A stretch of DNA of 39,198 bases from a virus (taxonomy: Duplodnaviria; Heunggongvirae; Uroviricota; Caudoviricetes), in IMG/VR virus record IMGVR_UViG_2531839622_000028. One strand, 5' to 3'. Positions within the stretch are counted from its first letter, which is position 1. Each line of letters starts with the position of its first letter. Below, piece after piece: positions 854 to 5,587 of this stretch. The notes under the pieces were generated by a model. That model was not told where the DNA came from, did no database searches, and saw only the letters and a list, made by a program, of their open reading frames with translations. The translations under genes and the position numbers were made by a program.

Positions 854-1591
854 TCATTCACTCTCTTTCAAACCAGTTTTAACTGTTTGTGGTTTTGGGT
901 AAGGCTGGACTTTGAATAGCTTTGTGTTGAGGCGTTTTCTGGCCCTCTTGTTCAGAAACCGGATGTAACGAAACTGTCGGAACTTATGCACACTGGCTCT
1001 GTCGATATTAGCCCTCAGATGTTCACCTCGTTGTCCGCCTCGTTTAATGGCACTCCTGCAAATCTCGTGATACCACTCGCCATCAAGTTCATAGAATGTT
1101 GATTCATGGCTGCCTACATAATCAAAATTGCTTGCCTGATACACGACACCAAGACAGCCACAACGCTCATCTGCAAACGACTGAACCCACTGTACCTGCG
1201 GATAAAGCTGCCTGATTAGCTTGAGCGCGTAACTGATTGCCCTTGATTCGGAGTTTCTCGGCATACAGTCATGCATCCATAGCCGGTTAAGCTCCATATA
1301 TTCTCGGTTCTGCGTACCCGTTACGACGCGTGCACCACTGTTTGGGTTAAGGGCGTAACCCCATTGCATTACGCCAACAAGTTCCCGTTCTGAAAATATA
1401 CCCAGATGAAGGTAGGAATTATTTACGAAACGGTGGCTGTAATGTTTATTGACGATAACCAGTCTGGCCAGCCAGCAACTTATTGTCTCAACCCGCAACT
1501 CACGGGAGCCATAACCAACGATATTGTCGTTATAGCGAATAAGTTCAGGCGTGCTGATGATACGGGATGTGACTTGCTTTCTGTTCCCCAC
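854..1591 (-). CDS. mom: Mom-like DNA modification protein (anti-restriction)
   Basis: 245-aa ORF whose 5' end overlaps the 3' end of a Com-type zinc-finger gene; last gene before the prophage end, as in Mu. Called from synteny, not sequence recall. Confidence 0.65.
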
Positions 1592-1745
1592 GACAGGATT
1601 TCCTTGTGTATGTGGGGTGCTCTGTGGCGCTCGGAGATGTGATTTGATTGAGGGTTTTACAGCGCGGACATTTTACTTCCAGATAACTGAAACTGGCCCG
1701 TGCCAGTAGCTTATTGCAGTGTCGGCACCGTATGTTTCGATACAT
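1545..1745 (-). CDS. com: Com-like zinc-finger translational activator of mom
   Basis: Motif [10 protein letters not shown]...CPRCK resembles Mu Com (two CxxC pairs); start taken at the internal ATG 1743-1745 (MYRNIRC...), preceded by AGGAGG 10 nt upstream; overlaps the mom start. Confidence 0.7.
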
Positions 1746-1935
1746 GGCCGCATAACCTCCTGCTTTGTTGTTGATGCCTTTCTCATGCAATCGATCGACA
1801 AAAACGATCGATTCGATTTGTTTAATTGATACAACAAATAGATTTAAAAGTCATCAACAATGATTCAGGGCGGTGATTATTTACTTAAAGAAACGAAGAG
1901 TTAGGTGGTGAAAACGATCATAAAATGATCATTTT
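1746..1935 (-). promoter_or_regulatory. com/mom upstream control region with clustered GATC (Dam) sites
   Basis: GATC at 1793-1796, 1806-1809, 1916-1919 and 1927-1930 in an AT-rich region upstream of com; in Mu, mom transcription depends on Dam methylation of upstream GATC sites and on C protein. Promoter elements not mapped. Confidence 0.35.
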
Positions 1936-2151
1936 ATTGACTTTTTATACAGTGAAGGTAGGATCGCGCGTATATGTAGTATGTTTCAAATCAACAGGAT
2001 ACTACATAAAAGGGAAACCCAGCATAGCTGGAACTATGCTGGGTCAATCTGTAAAAACTTGCATCAATGCTTTACTTCGAGCTCGTGGCGTATCCTATGA
2101 TATTCCCCGGTCTCCTGTAAAGCAGAGATGCATAAAAAGGAGATCTTTATC

Positions 2152-2322
2152 ATGGATAAAGAGCCTGTTTGCCCTGCCTGTAAGACTCCCTTACAGCTCA
2201 TCTATCGCCGTTCTCGATCTCAAAATGGCAAGACATACAAACCAAAAAATGCTTCCTGTTTCAGGATGCTGATATGTCCTGCCTGTTCTCCCCGGAGGGA
2301 AAATACACAAAACGTGCATTAA
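2152..2322 (+). CDS. Small zinc-ribbon protein (56 aa, two CPAC motifs), hypothetical
   Basis: ATG at 2152 preceded by AAAAAGGAG with about 9-nt spacing; CPACKT and CPACSP motifs; plus-strand gene inside a minus-strand block, convergent with the 81-aa gene across a hairpin. Confidence 0.4.
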   Translation: MDKEPVCPACKTPLQLIYRRSRSQNGKTYKPKNASCFRMLICPACSPRRENTQNVH

Positions 2323-2331
2323 CAAATTCAC

Positions 2332-2351
2332 CCGGCAGGGAAACCTGCCGG
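2332..2351. terminator. Stem-loop CCGGCAGG-GAAA-CCTGCCGG between convergent genes; possible bidirectional terminator
   Basis: Perfect 8-bp GC-rich stem with a GAAA loop read directly; sits between the stop of the plus-strand zinc-ribbon ORF (2322) and the stop of the minus-strand 81-aa ORF (2361); flanking T-tracts are weak. Confidence 0.4.
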
Positions 2352-2360
2352 TCGGTATTG

Positions 2361-2606
2361 TTACATCATAGTACCGTCAGTTCCGGGTTGAACCGGCTCT
2401 GGTTGCTCTACGGGTTGAGGCTCATTTTCCGTGCTGTTTTCAGCCGGAGAACGACCAACCATTCGGGCCAGCACTTCATCAACATATGCGTCGATTTGTG
2501 CCTCAAAATCCTTGCGAACCTGCGCCTTCAGCACGCGGTTCACTTCTTCAGAATAAAGTGCCTGTTTGACAAGCTCTTCAGTAACCGTGCCTTTAATCTC
2601 TGGCAT
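2361..2606 (-). CDS. Hypothetical 81-aa protein with acidic, Pro/Glu-rich C-terminus
   Basis: ORF with GGAAAGGAGAA upstream of the ATG at 2606; no recognisable family by eye. Confidence 0.5.
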   Translation of the reverse strand: MPEIKGTVTEELVKQALYSEEVNRVLKAQVRKDFEAQIDAYVDEVLARMVGRSPAENSTENEPQPVEQPEPVQPGTDGTMM

Positions 2607-2641
2607 GAATATTCTCCTTTCCTTTTCTGGTTCACAAAAAA

Positions 2642-2821
2642 TTAAATCTGACCGGAGTCTTTCGGCTGCGGCATTACAGCACCGCTTTTTATCTTTTCCT
2701 CGGCAGCTGCATCAATTTTATTTCGAAAATAATTGCGAATAATTTTATAACCACCGCTGACAAGCAACAGACAACAAACCACCGTGCAGAAATACAGCAG
2801 GCAGACGTTTATATATGTCAT
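2642..2821 (-). CDS. Small membrane protein (59 aa), hypothetical
   Basis: Not in the ORF track (below its size cut-off); ATG at 2819-2821 with GAGG 5 nt upstream; translation MTYINVCLLYFCTVVCCLLLVSGGYKIIRNYF... has one N-terminal hydrophobic helix and a charged tail. Confidence 0.4.
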   Translation of the reverse strand: MTYINVCLLYFCTVVCCLLLVSGGYKIIRNYFRNKIDAAAEEKIKSGAVMPQPKDSGQI

Positions 2822-2878
2822 ATAAGCCTCACTCTTATTAACTGATGTTACAGCCGGATAAATTCCCGGCCGTCACGA

Positions 2879-4927
2879 TTATGCCGCAGGGGTATTAACC
2901 TCAAGGACAACGCTCTCAAAAGACACGCCATAAGTTGCCCCTTTGGTGACATCTGTCAGTGTCAGCGTATCTTTGGCAGGGGAAAGTGCATCTTTCACCA
3001 TCTGGAATGCCTGGCCCGGAGTGCCATCCAGCACAGGCGTTACCTGGGCACTTCCCGCCGTAAACTTCAGGACAAGTGTATGCCACTGGTTATTGTAGGC
3101 TCCAAATGATCCCAGTTTCGTATTCCCCCCTGTTTTATGGTGCATCAGATTTAACTGGCCGCCTGTTGTCTGGAGATAATACGCCATCAGGAACGGTGTG
3201 CCTGTACCACTCATGGTTACACCTTCCGGGACCGTATCGGTGTGGAGGTAAATACCCAGAGCAAACTGGCCTTCTTTTACTTCACCTGACAGACGGAATT
3301 TACAGGTCAACTGACCACCATGCTTCAGAAGTTCACCGGCTGCATCAGTTCCATGGGTAAGCGTCCAGGTTTTTCCGCTTTGTTTGGATACGGTCAACGC
3401 TTTACCTTCGTCCGTCAGCTGGATTGTACCATCTGTAATTTTCCAGCCCTGAGCCGGGGCTTCTCCTGCTGATGCTTTAAGTGAAAGCAGCGTACGGAGT
3501 GACGGGGATGTCGGATGGGGGGACTCACTGCCTCCTGGCTGACTACCTGTCGGCGCTTCCGGTTTCCCACCCGGCGCGGGCTGAGGCAGGGCTTCACCAT
3601 CAGGGGCCACACCGGCAATAAATGCAGAGGTCAGACCTGCATATTTAAGAATTGCTGATGCAAAACGATCTGAGACCAGAAAACGGCGCGCCCAGGAGCT
3701 AAAATGGGTTGCCCTGGATGCTGTTGTCCAGTTGCCATCTCCCCGTGATTCCGCACCATAATACCCGGCAGAAGCGATATCCGGGTCGTGCTCCGGCAGG
3801 TTGGTCGCGGTTTTATTACCGAACTCATCGTGCATCAGTGGAACAAAGTGAATGTTCTCGGAAGCCCGGTTTTTATATCCGCTATAAATGGTTTCATATG
3901 CCGCCGGGTTCTTCTCTTTCCAGTCATAGGTTGTGTCACCACATAACCACGGCACACTGTCTGATGAACCACCAATACACTGACCGGAGAAAGCACCAAG
4001 ATCCGCACGGAATTTTTTCACCATCGCAGTAAACTGGGCACCATGCTGGGCCGGGGTCGCTTTAAGGTCTCCTTCCCCCTGAATCCATACGACAGATAAC
4101 AGCACATTCTTTGGATTCGCCTCAAGTGCCGCTTTAGTTCGACTGACAAGATCCTGATACAGTGGGGTATCCACTCCCCAGCGTAGTGACGCCTCGGCTG
4201 CACCACTTGCCGGATCGAATGAGCCAACTGCGCCGGTTGTAAAAGCAGAGCCGCCACGGGCACAGGGAACCAGTAAAATCCCGGCATCAGCAGGAATCAC
4301 CGGTAATACTTTTTTCGCAATATGAAGTCCCTGCCCCACACAACCATACTGCCCTTTTTTCAGGTCTGCTTTTGGATGGTTCAGCAGACTCATATTCTGA
4401 ACATCATGAAGGCAGTGATCTGCTGGAATGATTTCATTGTATTTGCAGGGAATACCTCCGGGGGTTTGTGTATTCCTGCGTGCCAGCTGCATAATACGTG
4501 GATCAGGACGATCATAAGAATCCGGAAGGGGCAACCCTTCACCATAAGATGAAGCATTGGACTGGCCGGCTATAACAATCACGTAATACCAGGAAGGGGA
4601 GCTGGAAGCCGTTTCATTTCCTGCCGGACGGGTATGTGTTTCTGCATTATCCCAGTCTGACGGTTCAGTAGTACCGGCAACATCAGCACTTAACGGAATG
4701 ACAGCACCAATACCCGCTCCGGTAATTTCCACGTTCGGATCACCGGATACTGGCCTTACCCACAGGCAATCCTGTGTATTAAAACTGATGAGACAGTCAG
4801 CAAATGTCATTCCTCCTTTTGTTTCGGCCGGAGGAAAGGGAGCCTCAAGAAATGCCGCTGTACCACCGGAAACTTTAACAGTAAAGTTTCCGGGCATTGA
4901 TGATAGTTGAACCCATTTGGACGTCAT
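2879..4927 (-). CDS. Modular carbohydrate esterase, SASA/SGNH type, resembling prophage-encoded sialate O-acetylesterases (NanS-p-like), with a C-terminal beta-rich putative sugar-binding domain
   Basis: 682-aa ORF; GQSN motif at residues 121-124 (nt 4556-4567) and a W-x-QGE-x-D block (VVWIQGEGD) typical of the SASA family; Pro/Gly-rich linker then about 180 C-terminal residues; no N-terminal signal peptide visible. Confidence 0.6.
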   Translation of the reverse strand: MTSKWVQLSSMPGNFTVKVSGGTAAFLEAPFPPAETKGGMTFADCLISFNTQDCLWVRPVSGDPNVEITGAGIGAVIPLSADVAGTTEPSDWDNAETHTRPAGNETASSSPSWYYVIVIAGQSNASSYGEGLPLPDSYDRPDPRIMQLARRNTQTPGGIPCKYNEIIPADHCLHDVQNMSLLNHPKADLKKGQYGCVGQGLHIAKKVLPVIPADAGILLVPCARGGSAFTTGAVGSFDPASGAAEASLRWGVDTPLYQDLVSRTKAALEANPKNVLLSVVWIQGEGDLKATPAQHGAQFTAMVKKFRADLGAFSGQCIGGSSDSVPWLCGDTTYDWKEKNPAAYETIYSGYKNRASENIHFVPLMHDEFGNKTATNLPEHDPDIASAGYYGAESRGDGNWTTASRATHFSSWARRFLVSDRFASAILKYAGLTSAFIAGVAPDGEALPQPAPGGKPEAPTGSQPGGSESPHPTSPSLRTLLSLKASAGEAPAQGWKITDGTIQLTDEGKALTVSKQSGKTWTLTHGTDAAGELLKHGGQLTCKFRLSGEVKEGQFALGIYLHTDTVPEGVTMSGTGTPFLMAYYLQTTGGQLNLMHHKTGGNTKLGSFGAYNNQWHTLVLKFTAGSAQVTPVLDGTPGQAFQMVKDALSPAKDTLTLTDVTKGATYGVSFESVVLEVNTPAA

Positions 4928-5026
4928 AATAATCAGCCTGTTCCTGAATAAACTGAATTATCATATCCACAGACCGATAAACGCCATTTTGCGTTAATTC
5001 AGTAAAGGCCCAACAAAGAGAGCGTC

Positions 5027-5587
5027 TTATTTTTCCGAAACGCTCGCAGGATAATAACGATAAAGGGTTGAAAGACCGATATCAAAAATAAGTGCCACCT
5101 GTCTTCGACTGACACCCCCGGCCAGTAAACGCCCGACCTGCTCGTATTGTTCCTGCGTGAGACGGCGGGGTCTGCCGCCGGTTCGTCCCCTTTCACGGGC
5201 AGCTGCAAGACCAGCCCGTGTCCGTTCGACAATTAATTCACGCTCCATTTCTGCCAGCGCACCCATTATGTGAAAAAAGAAACGCCCCATGGGGGTTGAC
5301 GTATCAATGTTGTCAGTAAGACTACGAAAATTTATCCCCTGTTGCTGTAATTCATCTGTCAGCGCAACAAGGTGGCGCATACTGCGCCCCAGCCTGTCCA
5401 GTTTCCAGACCATCAGTGTGTCACCGGGTTTTAGTTTCTTCAGTGCCCGCTTCAGTCCCGGCCGCTGTGTCGTTTTACCACTCATTTTGTCTTCAAAAAT
5501 CTGCTCACATCCTGCACATTCCAGCGCATTTCTTTGTAAACCGGTGTTCTGGTCATTTGTTGATACGCGTATATAGCCAATCAGCAT
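5027..5587 (-). CDS. gin: Gin/Hin/Cin-family serine DNA invertase
   Basis: 186-aa ORF; N-terminus MLIGYIRVSTNDQNTGLQRNAL... and C-terminal HTH match the Gin/Hin family; adjacent to a gix-like site and the tail-fibre cassettes. Confidence 0.9.
   Translation of the reverse strand: MLIGYIRVSTNDQNTGLQRNALECAGCEQIFEDKMSGKTTQRPGLKRALKKLKPGDTLMVWKLDRLGRSMRHLVALTDELQQQGINFRSLTDNIDTSTPMGRFFFHIMGALAEMERELIVERTRAGLAAARERGRTGGRPRRLTQEQYEQVGRLLAGGVSRRQVALIFDIGLSTLYRYYPASVSEK

Follow-up and report, generated by a model that had tools for sequence, protein, structure and literature searches.

The locus described here raises the question of whether three small genes that lie side by side in a prophage form a single functional block or belong to separate units. 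The DNA concerned, referred to below as the window, is a stretch of 39,198 nucleotides from a virus of the class Caudoviricetes (IMG/VR record IMGVR_UViG_2531839622_000028); it is an Sp18-like Mu prophage of Shiga toxin-producing Escherichia coli (STEC), read from its right end. Between an esterase gene and com, the interval 2152-2821 (670 bp) encodes a membrane peptide of 59 amino acids (aa), an acidic protein of 81 aa and, on the opposite strand, a protein of 56 aa with two CPAC motifs. An initial annotation had treated the three genes as one uncharacterised cargo block in which nothing was recognisable and had likened their layout to toxin-antitoxin, superinfection-exclusion and anti-defence modules. 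The analysis led to a different answer: the interval probably holds parts of two independent accessory modules that were inserted between the genes gin and com. The first, on the minus strand from 4927 to 2361, would be a mobile cassette of the esterase gene followed by the genes for the 59-aa protein (DUF1378) and the 81-aa protein (DUF826). The second, on the plus strand at 1937-2351, would be a self-contained unit in a swappable slot divergent from com and mom, composed of a sigma-70-like promoter, a leader of ~185 nt, the 56-aa zinc-ribbon open reading frame (ORF) and a terminator. The elements of the two modules are located as follows.

2879-4927, minus strand: NanS-p-type carbohydrate O-acetylesterase of 682 aa with SASA and DUF6645 domains, first gene of the cassette
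2642-2821, minus strand: DUF1378 family (PF07125) small membrane protein of 59 aa, second gene of the cassette
2361-2606, minus strand: DUF826 family (PF05696) protein of 81 aa, third gene of the cassette
2332-2351, no strand assigned: perfect 8-bp GC-rich hairpin, CCGGCAGG-GAAA-CCTGCCGG, between the convergent DUF826 and zinc-ribbon genes
2152-2322, plus strand: orphan small protein of 56 aa, predicted C4 zinc ribbon, isoelectric point (pI) 9.8, CPAC at residues 7-10 and 41-44
1971-2151, plus strand: structured 5' leader of ~185 nt, also present at L017:7820-8000, L130:1470-1729 and L132:1061-1320
1937-1964, plus strand: sigma-70-like promoter TTGACT-16-TAGGAT, located by promoter scan, activity predicted

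All three small ORFs lie where they had initially been placed, each with a Shine-Dalgarno (SD)-like sequence 6-9 nt upstream of its start, and the hairpin at 2332-2351 is exactly the perfect 8-bp stem with a GAAA loop that had been described. Hydropathy, pI and motifs likewise bear out the description of a membrane peptide, an acidic protein and a zinc ribbon with two CPAC motifs. The impression that nothing in the interval is recognisable did not survive, since two of the three proteins match known families far above the cut-offs and RefSeq already names them DUF1378 and DUF826 in identical genomes. The product of the second cassette gene, which is preceded by GAGG 6 nt upstream of its start, matches PF07125 with an E value of 9.2e-24 (83.8 bits against a cut-off of 25, profile positions 1-48 of 59) and PHROG 494 with 4.3e-29. 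It contains one hydrophobic segment of 19 residues (residues 4-22, mean Kyte-Doolittle value 2.46) that is followed by a basic segment. The family has an invariant core, LLYF.T.V..L.LVSGGYK.IRNY..KID.A, of which SGGYKxIRNY is common to 12 relatives, and a variable Pro-rich end. By the positive-inside rule, an N-out/C-in topology is predicted, with 3-4 N-terminal residues in the periplasm and the basic helix in the cytoplasm. The product of the third gene (GGAG 8 nt upstream of its start) matches PF05696 with an E value of 3.1e-15 (56.5 bits against a cut-off of 25, profile positions 1-52 of 75) and PHROG 311 with 5.4e-30. Its pI is 4.4 and residues 53-81 form a Pro/Glu-rich tail. The AlphaFold2 model places helices at residues 10-17 and 20-50 with a predicted local distance difference test (pLDDT) score of 86-97, and residues 56-81 fall below 50, so that the protein is modelled as a conserved helical N-terminal half (~52 aa) followed by a variable, acidic and disordered tail with a hydrophobic TMM tip. 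Across subfamilies this tail measures ~27-75 residues and is always acidic, and it ends in TMM, TLL, TML, MMM, ILP or PLP.

In Pfam, both DUF1378 and DUF826 are families of unknown function. Neither NCBIfam nor PADLOC added anything further on the two proteins, and sequence and profile searches of the PDB gave nothing at E <= 0.1 for these two or for the zinc-ribbon protein. The profile and structure searches proposed initially thus placed the 59- and 81-aa proteins in families, whereas the zinc-ribbon protein remained an orphan and the PDB yielded nothing. Two leads concerning the DUF proteins were discarded. The K-12 proteins YbcW and YnfO, considered as members of these families, are not: MG1655 annotates YnfO as DUF3950, YbcW is unrelated by eye, and a literature search with the two names returned nothing relevant. 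A DUF1378-DUF826 fusion suggested by PHROG 8301 (139 aa) probably reflects an ORF call that was extended too far, across DUF1378 in another frame (compare L010 and L012). As regards coding conservation, which had been named initially as a check, all three ORFs are under constraint, with ratios of non-synonymous to synonymous substitution (dN/dS, NG86) of ~0.1-0.3 against diverged relatives; the values are 0.17-0.30 for DUF1378 and 0.09-0.25 for DUF826.

The company that these genes keep was analyzed in 55 viral loci recovered from IMG/VR with the DUF1378 profile. The esterase gene lies directly upstream of DUF1378 in 50 of the 55 loci (in the window, on the same strand), DUF826 lies directly downstream in 46, and the complete order esterase, DUF1378, DUF826 is likewise found in 46 of the 55. 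By layout, 37 loci are lambdoid with an S21-type holin gene next, and 13 are Mu-like with gin and com. In the lambdoid prophages the called genes run esterase, DUF1378, DUF826, S21-type holin, lysozyme and Rz, and in the Mu-like prophages the same three genes follow one another between gin and com. The initial grouping of the three small genes as one block is therefore not upheld, as DUF1378 and DUF826 belong with the esterase and the zinc-ribbon unit is independent of them. The two DUF genes belong to families and to a cassette that were both known already, here moved into a Mu-like phage, and on present evidence they do not represent a new kind of system. Between the window and the lambdoid copies, identity amounts to 62-74% for DUF1378, 40-52% for DUF826 and 50-52% for the esterase, in the last case over ~596 aa. 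In four of the 55 loci (L048, L052, L061 and L072, at ~4170-4700 in each, all lambdoid), DUF826 is cut after the helical domain and joined to an esterase fragment, which marks a rearranged cassette. One DUF826 allele is found, in identical form, beside DUF1378 alleles that share only 59% identity with one another; the junction lies in the intergenic spacer of the pair. ORFs with DUF826 or DUF1378 domains have been annotated between nanS-p and holin S in some Stx2a phage genomes (PMC10462455), and this is the sole relevant paper on either family that was found. Divergent DUF1378 genes were also seen on their own: those of Mu/P2-like elements have tail-fibre genes on one side and a predicted Dam-type methylase gene (by eye) on the other, and in another phage type one lies directly after Rz, at the end of a holin-lysozyme-Rz cassette.

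The esterase that heads the cassette was identified by matches to SASA (1.6e-13) and DUF6645 (8e-26) in Pfam and to PHROG 143 (2e-273), and a 9-O-acetyl sialic acid esterase activity is predicted from domain homology. Its first ~85-110 residues (region 4600-4927) have no counterpart in lambdoid NanS-p. The lambdoid copies carry a DUF1737 domain N-terminally, for which Pfam gave no match on the window esterase, and no signal peptide was seen by eye. The NCBI annotation pipeline (PGAP) starts the gene at 4897, 30 nt further in, and a perfect hairpin (4868-4891) is located just within the 5' end of the ORF.

The zinc-ribbon gene follows a different distribution. A 53-aa protein (P0096) with 47% identity to it was found by exhaustive HMMER search in a non-E. 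coli enterobacterium, whose host DNA flanking the prophage is 79% identical to that of E. coli. This gene occupies the same position, divergent from com, in Mu-like prophages from which gin, the esterase gene, DUF1378 and DUF826 are all missing, and is followed there by ORFs of 100, 81 and 122 aa (L017:8362-9274, plus strand). Conversely, a common E. coli Mu-like lineage carries the full cassette together with an unrelated ORF of 86 or 97 aa in the slot (L003:6423-6683 and L005:6423-6716, both minus strand), which is homologous to the 100-aa ORF that follows the zinc-ribbon gene in the non-E. coli lineage (E 6e-11). In a third lineage (L023:7820-8245, L026, L032 and L090:2519-3180) a 68-aa ORF (MDKLTTDPK...) replaces the zinc-ribbon gene. 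Finally, L019 and L020 combine an identical zinc-ribbon gene with a DUF826 of the 72% type, and the switch falls at the hairpin of 2332-2351. The occurrence of the zinc-ribbon gene without the cassette and of the cassette without the zinc-ribbon gene, together with the recombinants L019 and L020, leads to the conclusion that the zinc-ribbon gene is neither a partner nor a specific regulator of DUF1378 and DUF826. Of the initial proposal of a separately transcribed zinc-ribbon regulator, the separate unit with its own promoter is thus retained, whereas a regulatory role towards the DUF pair is contradicted by their independent occurrence. Equally, the three genes are not conserved as a unit in related Mu-like prophages, where the slot varies and the cassette is kept separately.

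No Pfam family was assigned to the slot ORFs of 86/97, 100, 81 and 122 aa. The 122-aa protein of L017 belongs to PHROG 5954 (function unknown) and gave a weak, sub-threshold match to the PADLOC family PD-T4-7; the other alternative cargo had no PADLOC match. Recombination junctions were located near 1841, just upstream of the ribosome-binding site of the zinc-ribbon gene, in the hairpin at 2332-2351, in the DUF1378-DUF826 spacer near 2620 and at the com/mom boundary. The one near 1841 is the end of homology with the L003 lineage and the edge of the conserved region upstream of com. With junctions at several points, the gin-com interval is thus a chain of separately exchangeable modules, and the lineages differ accordingly in their cassette alleles, in their slot cargo (zinc-ribbon gene, 68-aa ORF or 86/97-aa ORF) and in the presence of mom or a C5-methyltransferase gene.

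The 56-aa protein itself, whose ORF has the SD-like sequence AGGAG 9 nt upstream of the start, matched no family in Pfam, PHROG, NCBIfam or PADLOC at curated thresholds, and all of its sub-threshold Pfam matches are zinc-ribbon families. Only four near-identical relatives, from E. coli, were found among 5.8 billion proteins. The comparison with P0096 is informative in that both proteins contain CPxC knuckles (CPAC/CPAC here, CPSC/CPKC in P0096) and a GKTY.PK motif; all four knuckle cysteines are kept and a fifth cysteine is not. AlphaFold2 models two beta-hairpins (strands 15-20 and 36-41, mean pLDDT 72), and a Foldseek search with this model returned only generic zinc ribbons (best E 0.6). 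The knuckles and the model point to a C4 zinc ribbon, which is a generic fold class, and metal binding is predicted. Within E. coli the changes in the ORF are mostly synonymous; against L017 dN is 0.41 and dS is saturated (NG86).

Upstream of the ORF lies a leader with strong folding potential, whose elements on the plus strand are listed here.

1973-2008, plus strand: hairpin
2017-2044, plus strand: hairpin
2060-2132, plus strand: long hairpin
2109-2116, plus strand: anti-SD sequence GGTCTCCT
2144-2162, plus strand: start-codon hairpin

The minimum free energy of the leader is -73.4 kcal/mol against -45 +/- 4.2 kcal/mol for shuffled sequences (z = -6.8), and ~90% of the cells in its two main helices are paired in the seven sequences compared. 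Its nucleotide conservation exceeds that of the ORF. The hairpin at 2017-2044 shows compensatory changes and exists in four sequence versions that all form perfect or near-perfect stems (-13 to -22 kcal/mol), and the element is duplicated in some relatives. The invariant GGTCTCCT can pair either within the long hairpin or with the SD sequence AGGAGATC, and the fold of minimum energy differs by variant; the ATG of the ORF is presented in the loop of an 8-bp hairpin. As these folds hide or expose the ribosome-binding site, translation of the zinc-ribbon ORF is probably regulated. The promoter is conserved as TTGACT-16-TAAGAT in the diverged lineage (L017 and L031). In the third lineage (L023, L026, L032 and L090), the unrelated 68-aa ORF stands behind this same promoter and leader, with the junction directly ahead of the ribosome-binding site, so that the leader behaves like a portable platform for the expression of different cargo. 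An Rfam search of 1500-3000, which includes the leader, found no family (two chance-level matches with E values of 0.08 and 0.94 lay below the gathering scores). In species-representative genomes a 21-nt leader motif had no match and a 17-nt motif had 29, all in unrelated taxa and at roughly the number expected by chance on our own estimate, so that the leader is absent from these genomes. A GATCAT-AAA-ATGATC palindrome with two Dam sites (~1914-1928) was observed just upstream of the plus-strand -35 hexamer.

At the other end of the unit, the hairpin at 2332-2351 has seven G-C pairs among its eight and a folding energy of -18.3 kcal/mol on the plus strand and -17.1 kcal/mol on the minus strand. 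In the diverged lineage (L017 and L130-133) the ORF is followed by a canonical terminator, CTCCAGCC-TTAT-TGGCTGGAG and then TTTTTC. In the window this place is taken by the hairpin, which likely stops transcription in both directions and which doubles as a recombination junction. Perfect 8-bp stems with loops of 3-8 nt begin at 14 positions (~9 distinct hairpins) in the 39-kb window, compared with a shuffle mean of 3.1, and four of the ~9 distinct hairpins lie within 1790-2351 (1790-1812, 2019-2042, 2144-2162 and 2332-2351). The first of these, just upstream of com, holds two GATC sites.

A working model of the two modules can be put together from these data. DUF1378 and DUF826 are most likely co-transcribed with the esterase gene, because the promoter scan flagged nothing on the minus strand from 2822 to 4900, and transcription would stop at the hairpin at 2332-2351. 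A candidate promoter-like site, TTGATA-17-TATCGT, was found by the same scan at the 3' end of gin (5085-5057). DUF1378 would be bitopic in the inner membrane, with its short N-terminus in the periplasm and a basic helix in the cytoplasm, and DUF826 would be a cytoplasmic, acidic helical protein with a disordered tail. Late expression would be expected from the position of the lambdoid copies in a Q-dependent late operon, and late in phage development the two proteins may act jointly on the cytoplasmic side of the inner membrane. They could be accessories to the signal-less esterase or to a lysis system of the signal-anchor-release (SAR) endolysin type, for instance in the timing of release. 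That their role accompanies the esterase or lysis, and not defence, is proposed here tentatively, because the esterase appears by eye to have no signal peptide, the lambdoid copies abut the pinholin gene, PF00959 lysozymes are encoded in both backbones and one lone DUF1378 gene ends a lysis cassette. In the PF00959 lysozyme of the window, the N-terminal segment is rich in Gly and Ala and, by eye, resembles a SAR sequence. On the plus strand, the 56-aa protein is probably a small zinc protein that binds nucleic acids or proteins; most simply it would have a regulatory or binding role and be made from its own promoter, with translation controlled by the leader. A bolder extension, which is held to be rather unlikely, would see the gin-com interval as a hot spot in which promoter and riboregulatory leader serve as a portable platform for new anti-defence or host-takeover cargo (the zinc-ribbon gene, the 68-aa ORF and the 86-100-aa family), and would regard DUF1378 and DUF826 as an unrecognised pair of membrane and cytoplasmic regulators of SAR-endolysin-type lysis in Shiga toxin (Stx) phages and Mu-like phages. 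In such a scheme the leader would toggle between SD-sequestering and SD-exposing folds and might respond to temperature, to Com or to the zinc-ribbon protein.

The initial idea of a single toxin-antitoxin, superinfection-exclusion or anti-defence module, with a membrane effector, an 81-aa partner and a zinc-ribbon regulator, is understandable from the layout of a small membrane protein, a small acidic soluble protein and a divergent small zinc protein. The block also adjoins the anti-restriction genes com and mom in a region that varies between prophages, and DUF1378 superficially resembles, by eye, the small membrane toxins of type I systems. Yet the zinc-ribbon gene and the DUF pair occur independently of each other, DUF1378 is found without DUF826 in five loci (L084-L088), which argues against a toxin and its antidote, and the identical DUF826 allele beside DUF1378 alleles of 59% mutual identity argues against a cognate pair. 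Homology gives the likeness no support either, as PADLOC assigned none of its families to the three proteins or the esterase, Pfam and NCBIfam contained nothing relevant and no relatives were found in the PDB. In lambdoid phages the pair resides within the late operon, between nanS-p and the holin gene, which would be atypical for defence genes expressed in the lysogen. A single module of this kind is consequently regarded as very improbable. Somewhat better placed, if still unlikely, is the view that DUF1378, with or without DUF826, is a lysogenic-conversion membrane factor that alters the envelope or blocks incoming phage DNA, and not a late accessory. Its expression would come from the prophage, with read-through from the gin promoter as one conceivable source. 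The gin gene of Mu is expressed in the lysogen, and the Mu-like cassette lies downstream of gin, with the promoter-like TTGATA-17-TATCGT at the 3' end of that gene; the lone DUF1378 relatives occupy classic moron positions, after tail-fibre genes or a lysis cassette. Against this, PHROG and PADLOC searches revealed no homology to any known exclusion protein, and the esterase-first order in 50 of 55 loci and the Q-dependent late operon of lambdoid phages point to late co-expression.

Two further explanations concern the plus strand only and deny the 56-aa ORF the status of a gene. PGAP and RefSeq annotate 1860-2322 (plus strand) as a frameshifted hypothetical gene in identical genomes, and an intact protein of 154 aa (WP_115801860.1) exists in O157:H7 variants, in which the upstream frame runs into the zinc-ribbon frame; the ORF could accordingly be the C-terminal remnant of a ~154-aa gene that is a pseudogene in the window. 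The length of the upstream frame is erratic, however, being open for 14, 56, 99, 135, 137 or 154 aa depending on the variant, and it joins the zinc-ribbon frame only in the variant type with both a +A and a +G indel. In the diverged lineage (L017) the frame that is open through the conserved upstream DNA is another one and runs into a stop codon, and the DNA folds into hairpins that are kept through compensatory changes and indels. The short ORF has an SD sequence and ATG of its own and is intact, at 52-56 aa, in all variants that carry it but L133, whose 5' portion is not in frame; in variants with the +G insertion, the extra base supplies a new in-frame ATG (MKEPVCPAC). We therefore favour the interpretation that the 52-56-aa ORF is the conserved gene and the long frame an accident of two indels, and the reverse is considered highly doubtful. 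The same observations bear on the suggestion that the plus-strand unit is mainly a non-coding RNA or a DNA-level regulator of com and mom, in which the 56-aa ORF is incidental and the hairpins might, for example, be minus-strand terminators that insulate the mom promoter. The leader is indeed more conserved than the ORF, strongly structured and found with a different downstream ORF, and the hairpin at 2017-2044 scores as a minus-strand terminator with a T-rich tail. But changes in the ORF are biased towards synonymous ones, its four knuckle cysteines, length and start are kept at 47% identity, the indel near the start is rescued by the new in-frame ATG, and the ORF is preceded by a conserved promoter and an SD sequence and, in the diverged lineage, followed by a canonical terminator on the plus strand. 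Of the explanations weighed here this is held to be the most remote.

Several observations weigh against the preferred reading of two independent modules, with a late cassette and a coding, regulated slot. Five divergent DUF1378 genes have neither an esterase gene nor DUF826 beside them (L084:1964-2110, L085:3914-4165, L086:4001-4165 and L087 and L088, both at 4001-4150), and DUF1378 therefore needs neither of the two. The location of the Mu-like cassette ~25 kb from the lysis genes weakens a role in lysis, and no functional literature on DUF826 or DUF1378 was found. On the plus strand, only two subfamilies of the zinc-ribbon protein are known, and in the variant L021 its first cysteine is replaced by a tyrosine. 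The covariation in the long leader hairpin is modest and only suggestive, with three pairs showing double changes among seven sequences and a score that was reached by 20 of 500 shuffles. The tails of the hairpin at 2332-2351 are only moderately T-rich (T at 6 of 13 nt on the plus strand and at 7 of 15 on the minus strand), and the hairpin is absent from the output of the terminator scan.

The setting of the two modules can be read from the following features of the window.

1-591: ydjM, an intact host gene
726: right end of the prophage, beginning TATAGCGCGGCG, 135 bp downstream of ydjM
854-1591, minus strand: mom
1545-1745, minus strand: com, zinc-ribbon translational activator of mom (Pfam Zn_ribbon_Com 3.3e-12, PGAP coordinates)
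5027-5587, minus strand: gin-type serine invertase (NCBIfam invertase and resolvase matches; 'recombinase family protein' in RefSeq)

At 726, the right end TATAGCGCGGCG has the same sequence as the end that is annotated for the Mu-like insert in LC727881, and TTGATAC occurs three times within 726-830 (at 744, 766 and 801), at candidate transposase-binding sites. The inserted DNA is bounded on one side by gin, which is upstream of the cassette in every complete Mu-like locus, and com bounds one side of the variable slot. Just upstream of com, ~1746-1841 is conserved in all lineages and matches the mom promoter of Mu (Pmom) in position. In phage Mu itself only 94 bp separate the end of gin from com, and the mom late promoter is their sole content; ~1842-5026 of the window is therefore extra DNA relative to Mu, and the initial statement that the small genes have no counterpart in the Mu backbone is correct. 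In several relatives (L002:4749-5801, L017:6398-7450, L021 and L024) the place of mom is taken by a gene whose product (Pfam DNA_methylase) is a C5 cytosine DNA methyltransferase of ~350 aa. This gene lies directly downstream of com and overlaps it, so that com is apparently coupled to a different DNA-modification enzyme there. Identical or near-identical DNA was detected in 214-217 of 5426 complete E. coli genomes (~4%), mostly STEC, and the zinc-ribbon region in 214. Mu-like phages have been noted in the genomes of O157:H7 Sakai and of clonal complex CC119. The Mu-like phages of the latter resemble Sp18, and their gin-com region is not discussed in the genomics paper that describes them (PMC10132054). 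Sp18-like Mu phages are treated only as insertions in the literature that was searchable here, in which the gin-com cargo is not described.

These results bear on STEC biology in two respects. DUF1378 and DUF826 ride with NanS-p in Shiga toxin phages, directly upstream of the lysis genes that release the toxin, and to our knowledge nobody seems to have tested either of them. The presence of the same three-gene unit in an unrelated transposable phage argues that it is kept together by selection, and the Mu-like phage offers a second and simpler genetic background for knock-outs of the two genes. The zinc-ribbon gene, for its part, is a case study in annotation, in which a RefSeq pseudogene or 154-aa protein stands against a gene of 52-56 aa behind a long structured leader. 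Should the leader act as a translational switch, a widespread STEC prophage would harbour a new cis-regulatory RNA.

Known systems resemble the two modules to different degrees. Com is, like the 56-aa protein, a small basic C4 zinc ribbon, and it is encoded within the same few hundred bases. The hairpin that would sequester the ribosome-binding site in the zinc-ribbon leader is reminiscent of the structure that Com opens on the mRNA of mom. The spacing of the knuckles differs between the two proteins, and RNA binding by the 56-aa protein is hypothetical. As a candidate paralogue Com was rejected, as BLASTP aligned a single knuckle of 13 residues (E 0.016 in a single comparison) and the protein gave no match to PF10122 at E <= 1. 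YnfU, a putative zinc-binding protein of the Qin prophage of E. coli K-12, shares the length of 56 aa, the prophage origin and two cysteine knuckles, the second of which reads LLICPHC compared with MLICPAC, and its gene likewise runs opposite to those around it. The alignment is limited to the 8-residue knuckle (E 0.008, a single comparison), and YnfU is considered an analogue and not a demonstrated homologue. For the DUF pair, the antiholin pairs of the T4 RI/RIII type come to mind, in which a small membrane-tethered and a small cytoplasmic helical protein modulate the timing of lysis. The architecture of DUF1378 and DUF826 appears similar, with a soluble helical partner of ~80 aa and lambdoid copies immediately upstream of the holin gene. 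The likeness would be a mechanistic analogy only; no sequence or structural relationship is known, although no direct comparison was made, and the Mu-like pair lies far from the lysis genes.

The nanS-p region of Stx and other lambdoid phages (933W type) differs from the window cassette in its surroundings, as the latter is located in a transposable Mu-like prophage between gin and com and not in a Q-dependent late operon, and is followed by a probable terminator and not by an S21-type holin gene and lysozyme gene. The window esterase is without DUF1737 and its N-terminus is unrelated over ~85-110 aa, and DUF826 has 81 aa in the window compared with 89-127 aa in the lambdoid copies. Despite these differences, both regions contain the same three families in the same order and orientation, with a spacer of 35-43 nt between DUF1378 and DUF826.

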